From Pedosphaera sp. (GTDB lineage: Bacteria; Verrucomicrobiota; Verrucomicrobiia; Limisphaerales; SIBH01), in contig JANOQV010000037.1 of the NCBI GenBank assembly GCA_031414955.1, positions 1 through 18,805 of the forward strand: DNA of 18,805 bases, read 5' to 3'. This document shows positions 6,819-18,805 of this stretch, piece by piece (the stretch's first letter is position 1; every line of letters starts with the position of its first letter). Below the pieces are notes generated by a model. That model did not search any database and was not told the DNA's origin. It saw only the letters and a list, made by a program, of their open reading frames with translations. The position numbers and the translations under genes were made by a program.

Positions 6819-7436
6819 ATGTCCATCTGGATCAAAATTTGCGGAATCACCCGCGCGGCCGACGCCCACGCCGCTTCCGATGCAGGAGCCGATGCGCTGG
6901 GCTTCATGTTCTACGCACCGAGCAAGCGCGCGATTGAGCCGGCCGCAGCGGGGGAGATCATCCGCGCTCTCCCGCCTTCCATCGCGAAGGTCGGCGTGTT
7001 CGTGAATCCGACGGCGGAGTTTGTGCGCGAGGCCATGGCGACGAGCGGCATCGACACGCTGCAATTTCACGGAGAGGAAGCGCCGGAGTTCTGCGCGCAG
7101 TTCGGTCTCCCTTTCCTGAAAGCCTTCCGCATCAAAGACCGCACCTCGCTCGACGCGTGCGCGCCGTTCCGCGACTGCGCGTGGCTGCTCGACAGCCATG
7201 TGGACGGCGCTCAGGGCGGAACCGGAGTCGTGTTCGATTGGGACGTGGCGCGGGAAGCCACCCGCCTCAACCGCAAGGTCATCGTCGCCGGCGGACTGAA
7301 GCCTGAAACGGTGGCCGAGGCCGTGCGCCAGGTGCGCCCTTACGGCGTGGATGTTTCCAGTGGTGTGGAGTCAGCGCCGGGGAAAAAGGATCACAGGAAG
7401 ATTCGGGACTTCATCGCGGCGGCGAAGAGTGTTTGA
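6819..7436 (+). CDS. trpF: Phosphoribosylanthranilate isomerase
   Basis: Motifs IKICGIT, GADALGF, VGVFVN, QFHGEE, GGTG..FDW, AGGL and GVDVSSGVESAPGKKD. Confidence 0.97.
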   Translation: MSIWIKICGITRAADAHAASDAGADALGFMFYAPSKRAIEPAAAGEIIRALPPSIAKVGVFVNPTAEFVREAMATSGIDTLQFHGEEAPEFCAQFGLPFLKAFRIKDRTSLDACAPFRDCAWLLDSHVDGAQGGTGVVFDWDVAREATRLNRKVIVAGGLKPETVAEAVRQVRPYGVDVSSGVESAPGKKDHRKIRDFIAAAKSV

Positions 7437-7570: not shown

Positions 7571-10402
7571 TCACGGCACGAGCACCGCGCGATAGAACCG
7601 GGTCGGATGCTGCGGGGAAGCCGGATCGATGAAGAGATACGGGCTGCTGGGCAGCACCACGTTCGTGAGGTTCAACCAGTTCGTGTTGTTGAGGTCGTTG
7701 CGGTAGTCGATCTGGTAATTGCCGCCGACCGCGCCGACGATGGTCAGGCCCGCATACATGTTCAGACTCAGGAGACTCAGCGTGGCGTTGGCACTGATGA
7801 CCGTCCCCGCCGCGTTGCTCACGACCACGGAATAAACCCCGGCCTGGCTCGCGTTCAGACTGCTCAAGGTCAGCGTCGCGCCGGTCACGCCGACGAGGTT
7901 CGTGCCGTTCAAGCGCCACTGGTAGGACAGGCCGCCGCCGGTCGCGCCGACACTCAAGGTCACCATGCCGTTCGCCGCCGCCGTCACATTCACGGGCTGA
8001 TTCGTGATGGCGGGTGGAGCGACGACCGTCAGCGGGGTGCTCGCGGCCAGGTTCCCCGCCGTCGCCGTGATCGTGCTGCTGCCGACGCTCAAGCCCGTGG
8101 CCAGACCGTTCGCGTTGAGGCTGGCGACCGCCGGGCTGCCACTGCTCCAGATGACTTCATTGGGCGCTGTGAAAATTTCGAGCGCCGAGGAGTAGGTGTT
8201 GTTGTATCCGCTGGCGGCAAAGATTTTACCGCTGCCTTCATCCGCCGCCACGGCCATCTGACGGCGGCCGGTCGGCAGCGGCGCAAAGTTGGTATGCCAG
8301 GCGTTCAACGCCGGGTCATAGGCGAAGACTCTTTGCTCCGGACTCGGTCCGGCCCCGATGGAAAACAATTTTCCATTCAGGACCACGCCCTCGCCGTTGC
8401 CATTTGTGAAGGGCATCGGGGCATTCGTGGCCCAGGTATTCACAATCGGATCGTAAGCATGAGTCGCAGTGGTCGGCCCGGAAGTATCCGAGCCGCCGGC
8501 CACATACAATTTCCCGCCGATGGCTCCCACCAATGCACCCAGATGGGCCGTCGGCATCGAAGCCTTGGTCGTCCAGGTGTTGCCGGACGGGTCATACTCC
8601 TCGACCCGGTTGAGGGCGGTGGCACCTGCGACGGTGGTGCCGCCGACGGCATAGATTTTCCCGTTCAGCGCCGCCGCTCCGAGGGCGTAACGCGCCCCCA
8701 AGGGCATGGGCGCGAGCGTGGTCCAGGTGTTCAAGGCCGGATCGTAACGCAACAGCGTGGCGCGGTCGCCGCTGCCGCCCGTGTCGCCGCCGACCAGGTA
8801 AATCTTCCCGTTGAGAACCGCGACGCCCGCGTACTGGCGCAAGTTGAACCCGGTGTCAGGCGGCAGGGGCGCTCCGTCAGACCAGGTGTTGTTGGTCACG
8901 TCGTAAATGCCCAATCGTGCCGTGGCAAAACCGGAGATGGCAAAAAATTTCCCACCGACGAACGCTCCGCCCAATCCGTAGCTCGGGGCCGGAATCGCTG
9001 TGCCACTCGTCCAGACGTTTCCGCCGCCGACGAGCGCGCGCGACGAGCCATCGCTGAAGGTTCCCGTGGCGGTGAACTGAAGATTGCTGGTCACGCCGAT
9101 GACGCGATTCGTCGGCGTCACCGTGAGCGAAACCAAAGCGGGAGCCACGGTGTAGCGCAGCACGAAGGCGTCATTCTGCCCCGCCGTGTTTCCACCGACG
9201 ACAAAGCTGCGCGTCTCGCCCACGACGTAGAGGTCCGTGCCATCGGTGGTGATGCCGTTGGCGATGTCATCCTGCGCGCCGCCGTAAAGCGTGGTTGAAA
9301 GCAGCGCGCCGGTAGCTGAATCCACTTCGAGCACGGCGGCATCAGCGCCACCGGCGGTCGTGCCGCGCGTCGCGCCGACGGCGTAAATCCGCGCGCCGAG
9401 TCCGGCCACGCCGTTCAGGAAATCTTCCGCGCTGTTCCGGTCGTATTGCTGCGACCACGATAAGTTGCCGGCCTCGTCCCATTTATCGACGAGGAAATTG
9501 GCCGCCGCGCCCGCGCCGACCTGGCCGACGGCGAAGATCGATCCGTCCAGCGTGGTGACGCCGATGTACGAGCCGCTCGTCGTCGTGCGCGACCAGAGGA
9601 GGTTGCCATTGGAGTCATACTTCCGCAGGTAAGCCTTGACGCCGCTGTCTGAGTTGACCCCCGAGACGTAGATGTTGCCATTGAGCAGCGCGAGTCCGCG
9701 ACCGACGCTGTAAGCGTTGCCGACCATGCTCGCGGAATCGTCCCGGGTCCACACCACGGTTCCATTCGTGTTGAGTTTGGAGACGAAGAGCCGTCCGCCG
9801 TTGGCGCCGTTCACCTGGCCGCTGCCAGTCACATAGACAAAGTTGGTGCCGCCTTCGCTGGTGACGAGCGAAGCCCATAAGCCTTCGCCTCCTCCGTAAC
9901 CAAATGCGCCCGGGGCCGCTGGAGTCTGCCGATCCCAGACCGAGCCGCCGAAGCCTCCGCCTGTCGCGCCGGTGAGCGGGAATCGGACGGTGATGCCTTT
10001 ATTCTCCTTGCCGCCGACGGTGTCGCTGGTGCGCCCGAAACTGCCGCCCGCGACATAGATTGCATCTGCCGAAGCGGCCACGCCGTTGAAGTCGTCGCCG
10101 CCGGCCAGCGCCGGCCAGATTGCGCTCCAGACCGGCGCGGCGTTGTTCACGGTCGGCAACGCATAGCGGCCCACAAGGCCGTCGCCGCTATTCGCCGAAC
10201 TAACCCCCGAGAAATACAGCGCGCCGCTGGAGACGCCGACCGCCGTGGCGCGCTGGTCGCCCGCGCCGCCGAAGTGATTTGTCGCGGCGAGGGCAAGGGT
10301 TTGGGCCTGCGCCGTGGCAGTACCGATCAAAGCGCCGACGAGCACCAGCGAAGGAATGAGGCGTCGTTTTACGAAACCGAATAGTGAGCTGTTATTTTTC
10401 AT
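7571..10402 (-). CDS. Large secreted multidomain protein: signal peptide, SBBP-like beta-propeller, Big_2 domain with an inserted 6-blade Kelch propeller, Ig-like domain, C-terminal RFYR tail
   Basis: AGGAG RBS before ATG 10402; signal peptide MKNNSS...GTATAQA. Propeller blades (YVTG...KLNTNGTVVW, KYDSNGNLLW, KWDEAGNLSW) and Kelch repeats (GKIYLVGG...YDPALNTWT) follow. Big_2 halves are SLTVTP...QFTATGTFSDG and VIWSS...GLATG...TITAT; the Ig domain is PAITNQP...YQWRLNG...AGVYSVVVSN. Confidence 0.92.
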   Translation of the reverse strand: MKNNSSLFGFVKRRLIPSLVLVGALIGTATAQAQTLALAATNHFGGAGDQRATAVGVSSGALYFSGVSSANSGDGLVGRYALPTVNNAAPVWSAIWPALAGGDDFNGVAASADAIYVAGGSFGRTSDTVGGKENKGITVRFPLTGATGGGFGGSVWDRQTPAAPGAFGYGGGEGLWASLVTSEGGTNFVYVTGSGQVNGANGGRLFVSKLNTNGTVVWTRDDSASMVGNAYSVGRGLALLNGNIYVSGVNSDSGVKAYLRKYDSNGNLLWSRTTTSGSYIGVTTLDGSIFAVGQVGAGAAANFLVDKWDEAGNLSWSQQYDRNSAEDFLNGVAGLGARIYAVGATRGTTAGGADAAVLEVDSATGALLSTTLYGGAQDDIANGITTDGTDLYVVGETRSFVVGGNTAGQNDAFVLRYTVAPALVSLTVTPTNRVIGVTSNLQFTATGTFSDGSSRALVGGGNVWTSGTAIPAPSYGLGGAFVGGKFFAISGFATARLGIYDVTNNTWSDGAPLPPDTGFNLRQYAGVAVLNGKIYLVGGDTGGSGDRATLLRYDPALNTWTTLAPMPLGARYALGAAALNGKIYAVGGTTVAGATALNRVEEYDPSGNTWTTKASMPTAHLGALVGAIGGKLYVAGGSDTSGPTTATHAYDPIVNTWATNAPMPFTNGNGEGVVLNGKLFSIGAGPSPEQRVFAYDPALNAWHTNFAPLPTGRRQMAVAADEGSGKIFAASGYNNTYSSALEIFTAPNEVIWSSGSPAVASLNANGLATGLSVGSSTITATAGNLAASTPLTVVAPPAITNQPVNVTAAANGMVTLSVGATGGGLSYQWRLNGTNLVGVTGATLTLSSLNASQAGVYSVVVSNAAGTVISANATLSLLSLNMYAGLTIVGAVGGNYQIDYRNDLNNTNWLNLTNVVLPSSPYLFIDPASPQHPTRFYRAVLVP

Positions 10403-10502
10403 GATTTTGTCTCCTGCAAACGGACGGAACACGTTTTGTTAAATGCTTTTGCTTTTGCGGCTGCCTTCCGCATTCGCGGCGCAGCCTCTTCTTTCCAACG
10501 CT

Positions 10503-10530
10503 TACAACAGGAAGCGGAGTGAACTCTTAC
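10503..10530 (-). promoter_or_regulatory. Putative ECF1 promoter copy A, GTAAGAGTTC-N8-TCCTGTTGTA, upstream of the secreted-protein gene
   Basis: Identical 10-mer and 7-mer with identical 8-nt spacing recur at 14624-14648, upstream of the kinase on the same strand. Confidence 0.75.
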
Positions 10531-10545
10531 GAAGATTGTTTTCCC

Positions 10546-13500
10546 TCATCGCTGCAGCAACACCCTGGGCGGCGCGCTCCAGTGGTCCGCGACCGGATCG
10601 TAGATCATCAAGTCGCCGTGCGGCAGGGGCGGCTTCACGGTCCAGCCGCCCACGACGTGCAGCTTGCCGTTTACGAATTGCGCACCACTGCCCTGATAGC
10701 GGCCGGCCGGGATGGGCGCGAGCACAGTCCAGGTATTCGACCCGGGATGGTAGGCGAAGAGGGTGGTTTCTGGTTCCGACGAGAATTGCCCGCTCGCGAC
10801 GTAGAGACGTCCGTTTAAGGCGGCGATGAAGAAGTTCGCGCGGGGTTGAGGCAGCGGCGCCCGGGTCGTCCACCCCGCGCCGGGAGTGAACGCTTCCACA
10901 GTGGTCAGGTAATTGTACCCTTGATGGCCGCCCACGGCGTAGAGCGTGCCGTCCACCACCGCCGCGCCCAAGCCGGACCGGGGCGTGGGCAGCGGGGCCT
11001 CGGTCTGCCACGAATCGGTCGCCGGATCGTATGATTCCACCACTGCCAGCGTGTTGGTGCTGGTGCCCAGCTCTCCACCCAGCACATACAGCCGGTTGTT
11101 CAGGACGGCACTGCCCATGGCGCTGCGCCCCGTGGGCAGCGGCGCTTTCGTGGTCCAAAGATCGAGAGCGGGGTCATAGACGTCGAGCCGGCGGCTGGCC
11201 AGGTCGGTGCCGTCCCCTCCTCCGGCGACATGGAGCCGGCCCGCGATTACTCCGGAAGCGGCCCGGGTATGAACCGATGGCGAGGGAGCCAGGGCACGCC
11301 AGACGTTTCGCGCCGGGTCGTATCCATGCAGAAGTTTCCTGGCTCCGCCGCTGTAACCATCCAGAGGCGTGGTGACGTAGAGTTGGCCGTCAATGGTCTC
11401 GCTCGAGCCGCCGTTGCTGCGCGTGGGCATGTCCGCCGGACAATCGGCCACTTCTTCGCGCACTTGCTGGATCTCCGGCGACCGCGAATCAGAGGCCACA
11501 GCCAGACGGCTGAACCAATCCGCTTCGTTCCAGTGGCGCGGATTTAATTTGGCCGGCTCGGCCAACAAGCGCCGCGCCAAGGCGGCGAGCGCCGGCGCGT
11601 TGGTGGGAGACCAGCGCACCGCTTCCTCCAGTCCGGCGAGGTGATTTTCTCTCACCCGCACCCGCACATCGTCCTCCACGCTCCGGGGCCATGCCGCCCG
11701 TGTTGCCGACTGGCCGCGTCCGGAAAGCAGTGAGCGGATCAATTGCGCGCCGCTCTTCGTGCCCCACGCTGGCGCCGGTTGAATCTGTAACCCAGCCCAC
11801 TCGCCGGCGGGCACGGGTCTGAGCTCGCCCTTGGCGTTCAGCCGGTGGCCGGCCAGGTTTTCCGCCAGGGCCGCCAACCCTGGCGGTGCGGGCCAGGGCA
11901 CCTGCGGCAATTCCCAAATGCGAACCGCGGTGTGGCGATTGTTCAGCCGACAGACGGTTAGCAGGCGCGTGGCATCCGGGCTGAACTCGGCGTGGGCCAC
12001 CGCCGTCTCGTGAACCAAGGCCCCGCTTAACGCGTGGCCCGTCCTCGTGTCGATCACGCGGACGGACTTGCCGTCCAGCACCAGCGAGAAGGGCAGAAGC
12101 TCGGATGAAGTGGCGGAAGCATTGGGGGCCGCCGCTTCGGACAGGCGTTGGCCCGAACTGATGTCCCACTGCTGGGCCACGCCATTTGTGCCCACAGTGA
12201 TCAAGGCGCGGCCATCCGCGCTGAGGTGCGCCGTGTGCGCAGACACGATCAAGCGCAGCGGCTCGCCGGGCGGCCGGCCCGGATGCACCTCCAGCACTCG
12301 CGCCTCGTTGGGTTGGGAGGCGACGAGCACGCGCACCGCTCCTTGGAAAAACTGCGCGGCCAGCACGCGGCTTTCAAACCGCTGCACGGTCCCGATCAGT
12401 TCGCCACTCCGCGAAGACCACACTCGCACCGTGTCATCATCGGCCACGGTGAGGACGCGCAAACCTTCCGGGCTGAATTCCATCGAGCGCACGCGCGCGC
12501 TGTGTCGCAGCACTCCGGCGAGCGGCAACTCGTTCCAAACATTCCACAGCCACACGTTCACCCCGTCCTCCAGGCTGGCGAGGTGCTGCCCGTCCGGGCT
12601 GAAAGTGGCGGACCGGACCGGAGCCAGGTGCTGCATGGGCTGGGTCAGTGGCGCGCCCGAACGGGCGTCCCAAACGCGGGCGGTTCCATCATCGCACGCC
12701 GTGACCAAGGCTTCTCCATCCGGGCTGAATTGCGCGGCACGATTGAATGACAGGTGCGTGATGCCCTTGGTCTGCGGCAATCCGGTGCGCAAATCCCAGA
12801 CCCACGCCGAATAACCGTAGGACGCTGTCACCAGCCGCTGTCCATCCGGGCTGAAATCGGAATCGAGCACCAGGGCGTGATCCGTGAGCCGTTCCGTGAT
12901 GGGCTGGCCGTCGTCCACGTTCCACACCCGCACTCCGCCCTCCATGGGCGCGGCATCCACGATTACGATGCGCCGTCCATCGCGGCTGAAGCGGGCCCCG
13001 CGAACGGGACCGCCCGGTTGCACCACGAGCAGTAGACGACCGTCGCTGACGGCCCAGACATGAACTGAATTGGTGGCGAGAATCATCAGGCGCTCGCCAT
13101 CCGCGCTGAACATGGCGCTGCGCAGCTTGTCGGGATGACTCAATGTTGGCGTCAACGGCCCTCCGGTTTCCGCATCCCAGACGCGCGCGAGGTTCGAGGA
13201 GAGGGTCACCACGCGCCGCCCGTCGGCGCTGAAGGACGCGGCCCGCACCGTGTCGTCGAGCCACAGTGCTGCTCCGAGCGGCACGGGCAGGTCGCGCTGC
13301 GCCAGGGCGAACATCAATCGCTCGGCGGCCAGGCGATTGGTCGGATGCGAGCGCAACACCTGGCCAAGTCCCGCCAGCGCGCGGGCGGATAGATCGGTGG
13401 CAAACCATTCCTCGATGCGCTGGAGTTCGATCAGGTCCAGTCGTTCCTCGGCGAGTTGGCGCTGACCTTGTTCGGCCTGGCGCGCGGAAGCGATGCGCAG

Positions 13501-14601
13501 CGCAGCCCGCGTGGACGTGAATGCGACCGCCAGCAGCAGCAGGCCAACCGTGATGGTCAGGCCCGCCACCGCCGGATGGCGCCGGCTCCAGCGCCACGCT
13601 TTTTCCGCCGCGCCGACGGGGCGGGCGTGGATTGGTTTGCCGCGCAGGAAGCGCCCGAGATCCTCGGCGAGTTCGCGCGCCGTGGCGTAGCGACGAGGCG
13701 GCTCTTTCGCGAGACACTTGAGGCAAATGATTTCCAGATCGCGCGGTGTGCCGGCATTGAGCAGGCGCGGGGGCGCGGGTTCCAGTTCCCTCACCTGGCG
13801 CAGCGTTTCCTCCAGCGTCCCGGCGGCAAACGGGGGGCGGCCGGTGAGCAGTTGATAAAGAATCGCACCCAGCGAATAGACATCGCTCGCCGCGCCGATG
13901 GCCTCGCGGCGACCGGTCGCTTGTTCCGGCGACATGAAGCTCGGCGTGCCGAGCACCTGCCCGGACACGGTCAGTTCCGAGCCGCCCCCGAGGCGCTTGG
14001 CCAGGCCAAAGTCCGTGACGTGCGGCTGATCACGTTCGTCGATGAGCACGTTCGATGGCTTGAGATCGCGGTGCAGGGTGCCTTGCTCGTGCGCGTATTG
14101 GATGGCGGCGGCGATGGTCCGCGTGTATTCGGCGGCCCGGCGCGGGGGCAAGGGTTGATCGCGGACCACCTCGGCCAGGTTTTTCCCCTCGATGTATTCC
14201 ATCGAGAAGTAGTGCCGGCCCTGGTGCTCGCCGATTTCGTAAATGGCGACAATGTTCGGGTGCCGGAGATTGGCGGCCGCTTCCGCCTCGGTGCGGAAGC
14301 GCTTCACGTCGTCTTCGCTCGCGAGCGCGCCGTTGAGAATCATTTTCAGCGCGACGATGCGATTGAGGCTCACCTGGCGCGCCGCATACACCACGCCCAT
14401 GCCGCCGCGGGCAATCTCCTCGATCAGCTCATAATCGCCAAAGTAGCGCACCCGGCGAGGATCGATCCCTTGATCGGAGGAAGGCGGCCCCGGGCTGACG
14501 GCGGGCGCAAAGGCTGCGCCGGCCACGCACCTGGGGCAAAGTCCACCCAGGCCCGCGCCGGCCAGGCGCGCGCCGCACTTCGTGCAGTTTGATCCGATCA
14601 C
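10546..14601 (-). CDS. Membrane Hanks-type Ser/Thr protein kinase with N-terminal CxxC/CxxC ribbon, TM helix, ~11 WD40 repeats, helical linker and C-terminal 6-blade Kelch propeller
   Basis: Kinase motifs [38 protein letters not shown] and SDVYSLG; TM segment [23 protein letters not shown]...VWD repeats; Kelch GG...YDP...W repeats. Likely start is GTG 14601 (GGGGA 8 nt upstream). The ORF-track extension to 15009 overlaps the sigma gene. Confidence 0.93.
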
Positions 14602-14620
14602 ATTGGTTGTCCCCACTTGA

Positions 14621-14648
14621 TAGAACAGGATTGCGGGCGAACTCTTAC
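14621..14648 (-). promoter_or_regulatory. Putative ECF1 promoter copy B, GTAAGAGTTC-N8-TCCTGTTCTA, between the sigma stop and the kinase start
   Basis: Matches copy A at 10503-10530; begins 6 nt after the ECF1 stop codon. Confidence 0.75.
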
Positions 14649-14654
14649 ACGACT

Positions 14655-15404
14655 TCAGCGGCTCAGGATGGCCTGCAAGTCCCGCAGTTCGTCGTCCACC
14701 TGCTCCGGCGTCCCGACGGTCTCGGCGATTTCGCGGCGCAAGGCTTCCCGGTATCGCTGCCGGAGACGATGGACGGCCACGGCCACCGCGCCCGCGCTCG
14801 TGTTCAGTTCGCGCGCCGCCTCCTTGTAGTCGCCGTGGCTCACGTCGCCTTCGAGAAATGTTTTCAGCCCCTCGAACTGCGCGAGCTTGCCGGCGGTCTC
14901 GAATTCGCCGCGCACCCGCGCAAAGGCGCGCTCCAGCAACGTGAGCGCCCAGCGACGGTCGAAAATATCCTCGGCTGTTTCCGTCGCGGCCGGCTCCGCG
15001 CCCAGCCATTCCTCGGTGTCATTCGCATCCAGGGGAACGAACGCCACGCCGCCGCCACGCTTCTGCGCGCTGGCTCGCTCGTGTTCGTTGACCAGGAAGT
15101 TATTGAGCGAGGCGAGCAGGAAGGACCGGAATTTGCCCTGGTCGCGGCGGACGTAGCCGAGAAAATCTTGCGCGAGAAGATGGGTGATGAAGGCCTGGGT
15201 CAAATCCTGGGCATCGTGCTGGCCGTAACCCCGGCGACGGAGGTAGGTGTAGAGCGGCGGCCAATAAGTGCGGCAGAGGGCTTCGAGCGCCGCGGTGGCC
15301 TGGGGTGAGCTTTCGCGGGCGGAAAGCACCACGCTCCAGTGCGTGGTCGTGAACCAACGCTGCTGATCATCAGGTTCCGGCGGACGCTGCGTGTCTAACG
15401 GCAT
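14655..15404 (-). CDS. ECF-type sigma-70 factor (Ser/Thr kinase-associated type), here called ECF1
   Basis: N-terminal FTTTHWSVV; region 2 [10 protein letters not shown]...[10 protein letters not shown]...GKFRSFL; region 4 [25 protein letters not shown]. It lies directly upstream of a kinase, with no anti-sigma gene. Confidence 0.93.
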
Positions 15405-15529: not shown

Positions 15530-16732
<1,203 letters not shown>

Positions 16733-16973: not shown

Positions 16974-16982
16974 TCTCCCTTG

Positions 16983-17732
16983 ATGCCAGCGCCCGAATCA
17001 CCTGAGGAATGCCCGCCGTCGCCGCTGTTCGTGACCACGCGCTGGTCGGTGGTGCTGGCGGCGCAGGATCGCGCCGCGCCCGCCTCGGCGGCGGCGCTCG
17101 AAACACTTTGCGGCGCCTACTGGTATCCGCTCTACGCCTTGGTCCGGCGACAAGGCCATTCACCACATGACGCGCAGGATTTGACCCAGGAGTTTTTTGC
17201 GCGACTGCTGCAAAAGGACTATCTGCGCGCGGCGGCCAGGGAGAAGGGCCGACTGCGCACGTTTCTCGCCGTGGCGCTCAAGCGTTTCCTGGCCAACGAA
17301 TGGGACCGCCTGCGCGCCCAGAAGCGCGGCGGGGGTGTGCCGCTCATCTCCTTCGATGCCACCACCGCCGAGCAGCGATACCAGCAGGAAGGCGCGGACA
17401 CGCTGTCGCCGGATCGCATCTACGAGCGCCAATGGGCCATGACCCTGCTCCAGCAGGCCCTGACGCGTTTGCGCGCGGAGTATGCGGCGGCGAGGAAGGA
17501 GGCGGAGTTCGAGATTCTCAAGAGTGCCTTGACCGCGGATCGCGGCGCGATCCCTTACGGCGACCTTGCCAATTCGCTGAAGACCAGCGAGGGCGCCGCG
17601 CGCGTGGCCGTGCATCGCCTGCGCAAGCGTTTCCGCGAGGTGTTCCGCGCGACCATTGCCGACACGGTGGAGGATGCGGCCGCAGTGGAGGACGAGTTGC
17701 GCTATGTGGCCCGCGTGCTGGGGGAGACATGA
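16983..17732 (+). CDS. ECF-type sigma-70 factor (Ser/Thr kinase-associated type), ECF2, paralog of ECF1
   Basis: Motifs [44 protein letters not shown] and SEGAARVAVHRLRKR. Confidence 0.93.
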   Translation: MPAPESPEECPPSPLFVTTRWSVVLAAQDRAAPASAAALETLCGAYWYPLYALVRRQGHSPHDAQDLTQEFFARLLQKDYLRAAAREKGRLRTFLAVALKRFLANEWDRLRAQKRGGGVPLISFDATTAEQRYQQEGADTLSPDRIYERQWAMTLLQQALTRLRAEYAAARKEAEFEILKSALTADRGAIPYGDLANSLKTSEGAARVAVHRLRKRFREVFRATIADTVEDAAAVEDELRYVARVLGET

Positions 17733-17746
17733 AAGCTGCGATTTCG

Positions 17747-17772
17747 TGTAACAAACTCCGCCGGATGCTTAA
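17747..17772 (+). promoter_or_regulatory. Putative ECF2 promoter copy, TGTAACAA-N11-TGCTTAA, upstream of the wHTH-kinase pair
   Basis: Same motif and spacing as 16948-16973; ends 10 nt before ATG 17783. Confidence 0.78.
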
Positions 17773-17782
17773 GGAGAAGGTA

Positions 17783-18117
17783 ATGAGCACTCTTTCTTCA
17801 GCCAACGAACGGGAACCGCAGGTCGTGATCAGTTTGGACCGGCGGGAGATTCGCCACGGAAACGGATTGCGCCACAAGCTCTCGCGTCTTGAAGCCGACC
17901 TGCTCTCGTGGCTGCTCGGCCGCGCGGGCCGTCCAGTCACGCGGAATGAACTTCTCGCCGGGGTCTGGCGGCTCGACCCGCTGCGCACGGTCACGCGCAC
18001 CGTGGACATGCACATCAGCATGCTGCGTAAAAAGCTCGGCGACGATTCGCGCCGGCCAGCGCTGCTGGTGACGATTCATCGGGTCGGGTACATGATGCAG
18101 CCCGTGCCCGCGATTTC

Positions 18118-18121
<4 letters not shown>
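17783..18121 (+). CDS. Stand-alone OmpR/PhoB-type winged-helix DNA-binding protein (no receiver domain)
   Basis: 112 aa: LSRLEADLLSWLL...GRPVTRNELLAGVW...TRTVDMHISMLRKKLG...LVTIHRVGY matches the Trans_reg_C pattern. AAGGAG precedes the ATG, and the stop overlaps the kinase start (ATGA). Confidence 0.88.

Positions 18122-18805
<684 letters not shown>

Follow-up and report, generated by a model that had tools for sequence, protein, structure and literature searches.

A predicted kinase-controlled ECF sigma factor cassette with a secreted output protein in Pedosphaera sp.

In the 18,805-nt stretch of DNA analysed here (hereafter the window), which is positions 1 to 18,805 of contig JANOQV010000037.1 from Pedosphaera sp. 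(assembly GCA_031414955.1; Verrucomicrobiota), we identified a cassette of three genes in a row on the minus strand, encoding an extracytoplasmic function (ECF)-type sigma factor (ECF1), a Hanks-type receptor kinase and a predicted secreted protein, herewith referred to as the cargo (Table 1). The cassette probably operates as one circuit, in which the kinase would sense a cue outside the cell and activate ECF1 by phosphorylation, and ECF1 would transcribe the genes for both the kinase and the secreted protein. The same bipartite motif precedes these two genes, and as judged from sequence it is very likely the promoter of ECF1-type sigma factors, because its bases track two DNA-reading residues of the sigma factor.

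The cassette is a member of a large family. When 401 genomes of the order were searched, 246 proved to carry homologues of ECF1 at E <= 1e-60, which points to a large signalling layer above the surface proteins of this abundant, little-studied order. The genome of the window (6.5 Mb searched) gave 27 BLAST matches to ECF1, among them one gene counted as two halves and a fragment, which leaves about 25 family members, together with 51 open reading frames (ORFs) for Hanks kinases. Among 40 fresh loci, a kinase gene follows within 2.5 kb downstream of 32 of the 37 held-out sigma genes with room for it. The outer parts of the kinases include WD40, TPR, Kelch, DUF4019, M23 and others, and the downstream genes often encode modular extracellular proteins (RCC1, LamG, FG-GAP, Ig, Calx-beta); the core, composed of sigma factor, promoter and kinase domain, is constant, and the cargo and the kinase's outer part can be exchanged. 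In the papers searched, among them passages of PMC7826278, PMC8999054, PMC8103513, PMC13147305, PMC11032199 and PMC8195603, we found no account of the cassette family, of its promoter behind the sigma gene that follows a residue-base code, of its secreted outputs or of its subfamily with matched Big_5 domains.

The shared promoter motif, the sigma factor and the kinase

The initial annotation of this DNA had noted the same motif before the kinase and the cargo genes, and this was confirmed: the genome contains two occurrences of the pattern GTAAG-N3/5-TC-N3/6-CGC-N1/2-TCCTGTT, which lie on the minus strand at 14648 and 10530, with a local motif score of 34 against a maximum of 32 among 5000 shuffles. 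The -10 element, read at that time as CCTGTT, is better described as (C/T)TGTA(A/G). A 38-nt promoter model was built from 42 of the 52 gaps between sigma and kinase genes in other genomes, the orthologues of the window being left out, and gave the consensus TGTAAC-N18-(C/T)TGTAA. Sites of this model were detected behind 16 of 47 kinases (0.05 in shuffles) and behind 24 of 39 held-out sigma genes, with none of the 39 on the reverse strand. Both sites of the window are among the top ten of the genome (Table 1). The kinase promoter begins 6 nt past the stop codon of the sigma gene and is conserved in loci L051, L131, L132 and L134, and the core of the cargo promoter is also present in L039.

The claim that ECF1 drives the kinase and its target was supported by the shared promoter, from which feedback on the kinase would follow; the sigma gene itself has no such site. 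Sites upstream of sigma genes were at chance level (2/83 against 2/83), giving no sign of sigma gene autoregulation; autoregulation of the ECF1 gene was rejected since no motif site lies upstream of it, and a simple scan found no sigma-70-like promoter for this gene.

The assignment of the motif to the sigma factor comes from covariation. Residue 85 in sigma2 tracks the second base of the -10 element in 55 of 56 loci and in 24 of 24 held-out loci; both characters change 17 times on the tree, and phylogenetically independent pairs agree 6 to 0 with one tie (p=0.031). Residue 208 lies in the sigma4 helix and aligns, in a weak alignment, with R of the GTVRSR sequence of SigE, an arginine that contacts the -35 element. 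K or R at this position goes with C as base 6 of the -35 element and A, G or T with T or G, ECF1 combining A208 with TGTAAG. The cargo sites, located 1.2-9 kb away, obey the rules for residues 208 and 85 in 46/48 and 45/48 cases.

Several observations weigh against this assignment. The agreement for residue 208 is perfect (56/56 with the base masked, and 24/24 held-out loci), but the trait changes only twice on the tree, so that it represents two events, not 80, and carries little weight as independent evidence. With a threshold of 12 bits, the genome gave about as many matches as the shuffled control (45 in 6.5 Mb and 8 in 1.7 Mb, respectively), matches below about 15 bits being at chance level, and therefore only the top ranks count. 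Moreover, no 10-bit site lies near 41 of 97 sigma genes and 15 of 39 held-out sigma genes.

ECF1 is a divergent sigma factor. Its matches to Sigma70_r2, Sigma70_r4_2 and TIGR02937 are weak, each under the cut-off of Pfam or NCBIfam, and its nearest Atlas clusters are ECF sigma factors, mostly of Verrucomicrobiota (at 0.99). In a weak alignment with SigE (PDB 9m9d; E 0.29), the DAQD of ECF1 aligns with the canonical DAED. The nearest paralogue in the genome (63%; L130:298-1131, genome G000, contig C229) is not followed by a kinase near the end of the contig.

The kinase retains the catalytic motifs VALK, HRD and DFG, all intact, and its N-terminal zinc ribbon is shared by 25 of 38 kinases of held-out loci. 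The gene starts with GTG at 14601, and not with the ATG at 15009, inside the sigma gene, that had been proposed for it. Between the transmembrane (TM) helix and the Kelch propeller we found a WD40 region followed by a helical cap, neither of which had been mentioned in the initial annotation. That annotation had also stated that an anti-sigma gene is absent, and in the gene content of the window we likewise found none at the cassette, since the kinase gene lies directly behind the sigma gene and trpB diverges upstream.

We propose that basal levels of sigma factor and kinase would be supplied by upstream or read-through transcription, and that an outside cue at the WD40/Kelch ectodomain would activate the kinase, which would then phosphorylate ECF1, by analogy with EcfP and EcfK. 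Phosphorylation would supply the charge missing in DAQD, at a site away from the threonine position of ECF43; candidates are T21, S24 and T229, the corresponding Ser/Thr being nearly invariant among 136 relatives (T21 in 136/136, S/T24 in 135/136 and T229 in 134/136). ECF1 would then transcribe kinase and cargo from TGTAA(C/T/G)-N18-(C/T)TGTAA promoters and, because the same promoter stands before both genes, positive feedback on the kinase would be expected.

Kelch propellers and the matching of sensor and cargo

Six-blade Kelch propellers had been predicted in the distal part of the kinase and in the downstream secreted protein, and both were recovered by profile search (Table 1). In an AlphaFold2 model of cap plus Kelch (mean pLDDT 76.5), four helices are followed by six 4-stranded blades, and the best structural match is the Kelch domain of KLHL17 (Z 34.5, rmsd 2.0, 267 aligned). 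The same kinase architecture is found in six database proteins of 1314-1408 aa, the Kelch part being 62-70% identical. The cargo propeller sits, by sequence, between the two halves of one Big_2 domain. Scans for further Kelch kinases gave one new case in 45 genomes and three orthologous loci from collection scans, with none new in sets of 14, 301 and 7 genomes. A large group of Kelch kinases of about 1010 aa (P0011-P0086), some named from Acidobacteriota, lies outside the studied clade.

The phylogeny of the two propellers turned out different from the expectation that they form a sister pair. They are 36% identical, and within a comparison set gathered by likeness to the kinase Kelch, the cargo Kelch takes rank 74 among 112 non-kinase Kelch proteins when these are compared with the kinase Kelch; in the comparison with the cargo Kelch, the kinase Kelch takes rank 91 of 158. 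In a tree of four blades, with 32 rows chosen from the 158 Kelch proteins and a register that is ambiguous between lineages, the kinase Kelch belongs to a clade of 17 rows (100/98), outside of which lies the cargo clade (100/100). The candidate sister grouping was rejected in the approximately unbiased (AU) test (p-AU 0.035 for joint grouping). The Kelch pair at L111 is also not one of sisters (rank 66 of 112). At L032, on the other hand, the cargo is the closest non-kinase relative of the kinase Kelch clade, and the kinase propeller of the window is a circular permutation of this type of cargo propeller, with 55% identity in two swapped segments, as compared with 32-39% and no fixed register for the window cargo. 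The kinase Kelch therefore likely arose, to judge from this one informative locus, when an older cargo propeller, and not that of its present neighbour, was captured and circularly permuted.

The sensor part and the cargo are exchanged independently in relatives. In genome G259, the closest relative, the sigma factor (91%), kinase domain (84%), WD40 region (36%) and cargo (80%) are all present together with the same promoters, and the kinase is without Kelch, terminating just past the cap where the Kelch of the window starts. At L134, an orthologue of the Kelch kinase and the motif are followed by a non-Kelch protein with the C-terminal FYR domain. Of the eight readable Kelch kinases, three are followed by Kelch cargo (window, L032 and L111) and five are not (L031, L033, L034, L132 and L134); L131 was left out of this count, since it runs into the contig edge. 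The same cargo lineage is also located behind kinases without Kelch at L039 and L042. Two points count against this view: the G259 kinase spans two contigs, joined by homology and the shared promoter and not by sequence, and Kelch cargo is in excess behind Kelch kinases (3/8, as compared with 2/86 for other loci; p=0.004 in Fisher's test, and 0.027 if the window is omitted, for few and related loci), an excess that independent exchange does not explain by itself.

This excess is one argument for an alternative, in which the kinase Kelch and the cargo Kelch form a matched pair, recognizing the same ligand or each other, that is kept by selection. The Kelch profile search of the genome gave only three ORFs, two of them being the adjacent kinase and cargo, and the kinship of the L032 cargo to the kinase clade and the occurrence of pairing in the Big_5 subfamily (see below) point in the same direction. 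Nevertheless, we consider a matched Kelch pair unlikely, given that the partners are sisters neither in the window nor at L111, that most readable Kelch kinases do without Kelch cargo, and that the same cargo lineage serves non-Kelch kinases.

Two observations on Kelch cargo stand apart. At L040, L042 and L047, it is located behind kinases paired with another sigma type, with an MSEVT/MNDVT-like N-terminus, which may be ECF43-like. The L032 locus (L032:9883-19958) is an array of secreted genes, in which four cargo genes each carry their own promoter site, and it includes a Kelch cargo gene with an in-frame stop and a duplicated fragment of the kinase tail.

As for matching of kinase and cargo domains in general, BLAST detected own-locus matches for 5 of 67 kinases (18 of 85 were dropped for lack of a downstream gene, and 10 of the 67 are Kelch-picked loci or the window itself) and for 2 of 30 held-out kinases. 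When the unselected kinases were pooled, 5 of 87 matched, of which two are artefacts (a split kinase and a duplicated fragment) and one concerns a membrane domain that also occurs in a second sigma factor, leaving two real matches, both of Big_5. When 36 kinase tails and 47 downstream proteins, representing part of the loci, were scanned with Pfam, no family was shared within a locus. Matching as a family-wide rule was therefore rejected; of the earlier expectation there remain the Kelch excess and the Big_5 subfamily. A shared membrane-region domain (35% over 114 aa) is seen at L059:10948-16040 between a kinase and the next-gene sigma factor, which has a C-terminal membrane extension.

A search for Big_5 gave matches in 67 of 401 genomes, the genome of the window not being among them, and we read 46 loci from 45 genomes (28 chosen as visible pairs, 12 as single matches and 6 from an earlier set). 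Among the 31 Big_5 kinases, which vary in length from 525 to over 1300 codons, one lies at a contig edge, and all of the other 30 directly precede a small secreted protein that begins with a related Big_5 domain (examples at L143:3336-4330, L148:4941-6620 and L206-L233); the layout is the same for three cut ORFs, and at 11 loci the cargo is present without a Big_5 kinase. The proposal that sensor and effector domains are swapped together thus failed for the Kelch pair, as G259 and L134 indicate, and holds as co-occurrence in the Big_5 subfamily. Identity within the own locus is 0.567, against 0.525 for permuted pairs, and the domains from kinases are for the most part placed in other clades than those from cargo proteins (7 label changes); both features fit with an old duplication that has apparently been retained as a pair, and not with repeated copying. 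At the Big_5 loci read, no promoter motif was found between kinase and cargo.

A wider interpretation is that the cassettes are self-tuning systems that sense what they secrete, with Big_5, whose partners co-diverge, as the stable form and Kelch as a second capture, in which another Kelch protein can take the place of the cargo. The kinase would take over the lead domain of the induced protein and bind that protein or its ligand, so that the loop would close outside the cell, and the two-residue code would separate some 25 circuits per genome. We regard this interpretation as tentative and rather doubtful.

Control of ECF1 and the setting of the cassette

Phosphorylation of ECF1 by its kinase, the preferred account of the circuit, has to be weighed against the sequence of the sigma factor itself: DAQD still has two acidic residues, and position 3 of this motif, Q in 105 of 136 relatives, is E in 21 of the 136. 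The kinase could instead control ECF1 without phosphorylating it, for instance by holding it at the membrane via the zinc ribbon or the kinase domain and releasing it upon signal. Such control would agree with the lack of Ser/Thr at the ECF43 position and with the location of the kinase gene under the promoter of the sigma factor, where anti-sigma genes often lie. It would also agree with section 3.4 of PMC8999054, which warns that groups other than ECF43 may work differently and leaves their mechanism open. Control without phosphorylation is nonetheless quite improbable in view of the intact catalytic motifs of the kinase, the invariant Ser/Thr in the family and the direct phosphorylation of EcfP and EcfK (PMC8999054 and PMC13147305). 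It is hardly credible that the motif serves a different DNA-binding protein or acts in recombination as a site for the shuffling of cargo genes: two TGTAA sequences at a distance of about 25 nt make it a near-direct repeat, it lies at module borders and a winged-helix ORF follows one such site at 17747, but its two parts covary with the sigma4 and sigma2 residues of the adjacent sigma factor even at distant cargo sites, it always lies on the coding strand, and TGTAAC is a predicted -35 element of ECF120 and ECF231 (PMC7826278 supplement).

The cassette is oriented opposite to the flanking trpF and trpB. The neighbours of the orthologous cassette at L131 differ from trpF and trpB, which suggests that the cassette moves as a unit. 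The sigma factors at L131 and L132 are 82-87% identical to that of the window; their records are named Bifidobacteriaceae and Acidiferrales, which may reflect misbinning or transfer. A second cassette of the same family, with the sigma factor ECF2, lies on the plus strand of the window; it has a motif site (17.0 bits) behind the sigma gene, a stand-alone winged-helix Trans_reg_C ORF and a zinc-ribbon kinase truncated by the contig end.

The cargo has orthologues in three genomes of the same genus (69-80% identical). Its SBBP-like region was assigned by weak resemblance, and its match to NF047494 is weak and under the cut-off. The C-terminal FYR domain, undescribed in the literature searched, terminates 184 ORFs of the genome, and 106 of the 149 complete ones carry a signal peptide by a crude criterion. 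Only 20 of the 184 are located within 15 kb behind a kinase, and the domain is therefore a general feature of the secretome; among 57 unselected kinases, 19 have an FYR-domain protein within the next three genes. The model of the domain is a five-strand sheet (pLDDT 89.5) with only non-specific, FN3-like structural matches (best Z 6.2). The FYR domain may serve as a secretion or sorting signal. The C-terminal domain of the type IX secretion system was considered as a lead for this tail; the tail has no match in Pfam or NCBIfam, and the best structural rows are FN3-like (Z <=6.2). A literature search on sorting signals and on matched domains gave nothing relevant among the papers listed. At L037:7240-7731 and L038 near 11400-11600, cargo orthologues of G015 and G098 retain the promoter, and only kinase remnants precede them. 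The C-terminal region of the kinase at L122:5884-8166 (G000 C159) resembles several FYR proteins of the genome (33-35% over ~330 aa), which are not its own neighbours.

Table 1. Features of the cassette and its surroundings in the window
Feature	Positions	Strand	Remarks
trpF	6819-7436	+	flanking gene
Predicted secreted cargo	7571-10402	-	943 aa; signal peptide, SBBP-like propeller region, Big_2 with Kelch insert, Ig_3, C-terminal FYR
FYR domain of cargo	7574-7765	-	C-terminal; own profile
Kelch propeller of cargo	8168-9022	-	Kelch_1 E 8e-38; six-blade form by repeats only, not folded
Predicted ECF1 promoter of cargo	10494-10531	-	-35 CGTAAG, 18-nt spacer, -10 TTGTAA; 24.6 bits, rank 6 in genome
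Receptor Hanks kinase	10546-14601	-	1351 aa; Pkinase E 1e-51
Kelch propeller of kinase	10549-11421	-	six-blade; Pfam Kelch_1 E 2e-40, six repeats
WD40 end and helical cap	11449-11931	-	aa 891-1051; alignment with L039 ORF, E 6.5e-17; four helices in model
WD40 propeller region	11932-13254	-	aa ~450-890, predicted periplasmic; Pfam WD40 E 3e-25; limits approximate
Predicted single TM helix of kinase	13516-13569	-	hydropathy scan
Zinc ribbon of kinase	14527-14586	-	N-terminal, aa 6-25, CxxC...CxxC; from sequence
Predicted ECF1 promoter of kinase	14612-14649	-	-35 TGTAAG (14649-14644), 18-nt spacer, -10 TTCTAT; 21.9 bits, rank 9 in genome
ECF-type sigma factor ECF1	14655-15404	-	249 aa; N-terminal FxTTxWS motif; DAQD where DAED is usual
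trpB	15530-16732	+	flanking gene
Second cassette	16980-18805	+	same family; runs to contig end
ECF2	16980-17732	+	sigma gene of second cassette
Motif site of second cassette	17747	+	17.0 bits
Trans_reg_C ORF	~17783-18121	+	stand-alone winged helix

Comparison with known systems

Searches of the literature on Verrucomicrobia with ECF and kinase gave no relevant paper, and those on ECF60 and ECF62 gave only the classification and two reviews. No kinase-linked group for Verrucomicrobia is described in the passages of the PMC7826278 supplement that name Verrucomicrobia. For kinase-linked ECF groups beyond ECF43 we found no tested member in the passages available, and the published promoter search for ECF62 found nothing conserved (PMC7826278). 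The present family supplies a predicted promoter, a code that links residues and bases at two positions, candidate phosphosites and predicted outputs, and thus makes sigma factor phosphorylation outside ECF43 directly testable. Since the promoter lies downstream of the sigma gene, a search based on autoregulation would likely miss it. Also indicated are the undescribed C-terminal domain of the FYR ORFs and a Big_5 subfamily with a domain common to receptor and output.

The closest description is that of ECF62, in which the +1 gene encodes a kinase that has a zinc finger at its N-terminus, a single TM helix and WD40 repeats, and which has no anti-sigma factor (PMC7826278). The window agrees in all these points, as compared by description only: the +1 kinase, the single TM helix with WD40, the N-terminal CxxC...CxxC and the lack of an anti-sigma gene. 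ECF62 is given there as 100% Planctomycetes with predicted promoters that are 'not conserved', the outputs not being stated; in contrast, the promoter here is found downstream of the sigma gene, and secreted proteins are the predicted outputs. The range also differs, as the nearest Atlas clusters of sigma factor and cargo tail are mostly of Verrucomicrobiota, although this evidence is indirect and the published range may reflect sampling.

With ECF43 (EcfP/PknT and EcfK/PknS), the cassette shares an ECF sigma factor beside a membrane Hanks kinase, the lack of any anti-sigma factor and an incomplete DAED charge. As far as described in PMC8999054 and PMC13147305, however, the phospho-threonine of ECF43 lies at the DAED position (STTA); ECF1 carries DAQD there, so that any phosphosite would be elsewhere. 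ECF59, ECF61, ECF217 and the former ECF60 are likewise kinase-linked ECF groups of the Planctomycetes-Verrucomicrobia-Chlamydiae (PVC) group, and ECF60 was dropped from the classification for its divergent sigma2, as ECF1 is likewise under the Pfam cut-offs; their kinases are described as multi-TM or TPR types of Planctomycetes (PMC7826278).

The WD40/TPR receptor kinases of Planctomycetota resemble the kinase of the window in the cytoplasmic kinase domain, the single TM helix, the periplasmic WD40/TPR arrays and the lineage-specific expansion; they differ in that no sigma partner, promoter or cargo is given in the text available, and 'Kelch' is absent from its main text (PMC11032199). The EAD principle, as presented in part of PMC8195603, proposes coupling of neighbouring genes through homotypic binding of homologous domains and is parallel to the Big_5 pairs, but EADs are cytoplasmic helical adaptors of counter-invader systems, and not periplasmic sensor/secreted-protein pairs. 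Taken together, ECF1 is filed neither as ECF62 nor as ECF43, and works like a kinase-linked ECF sigma factor.

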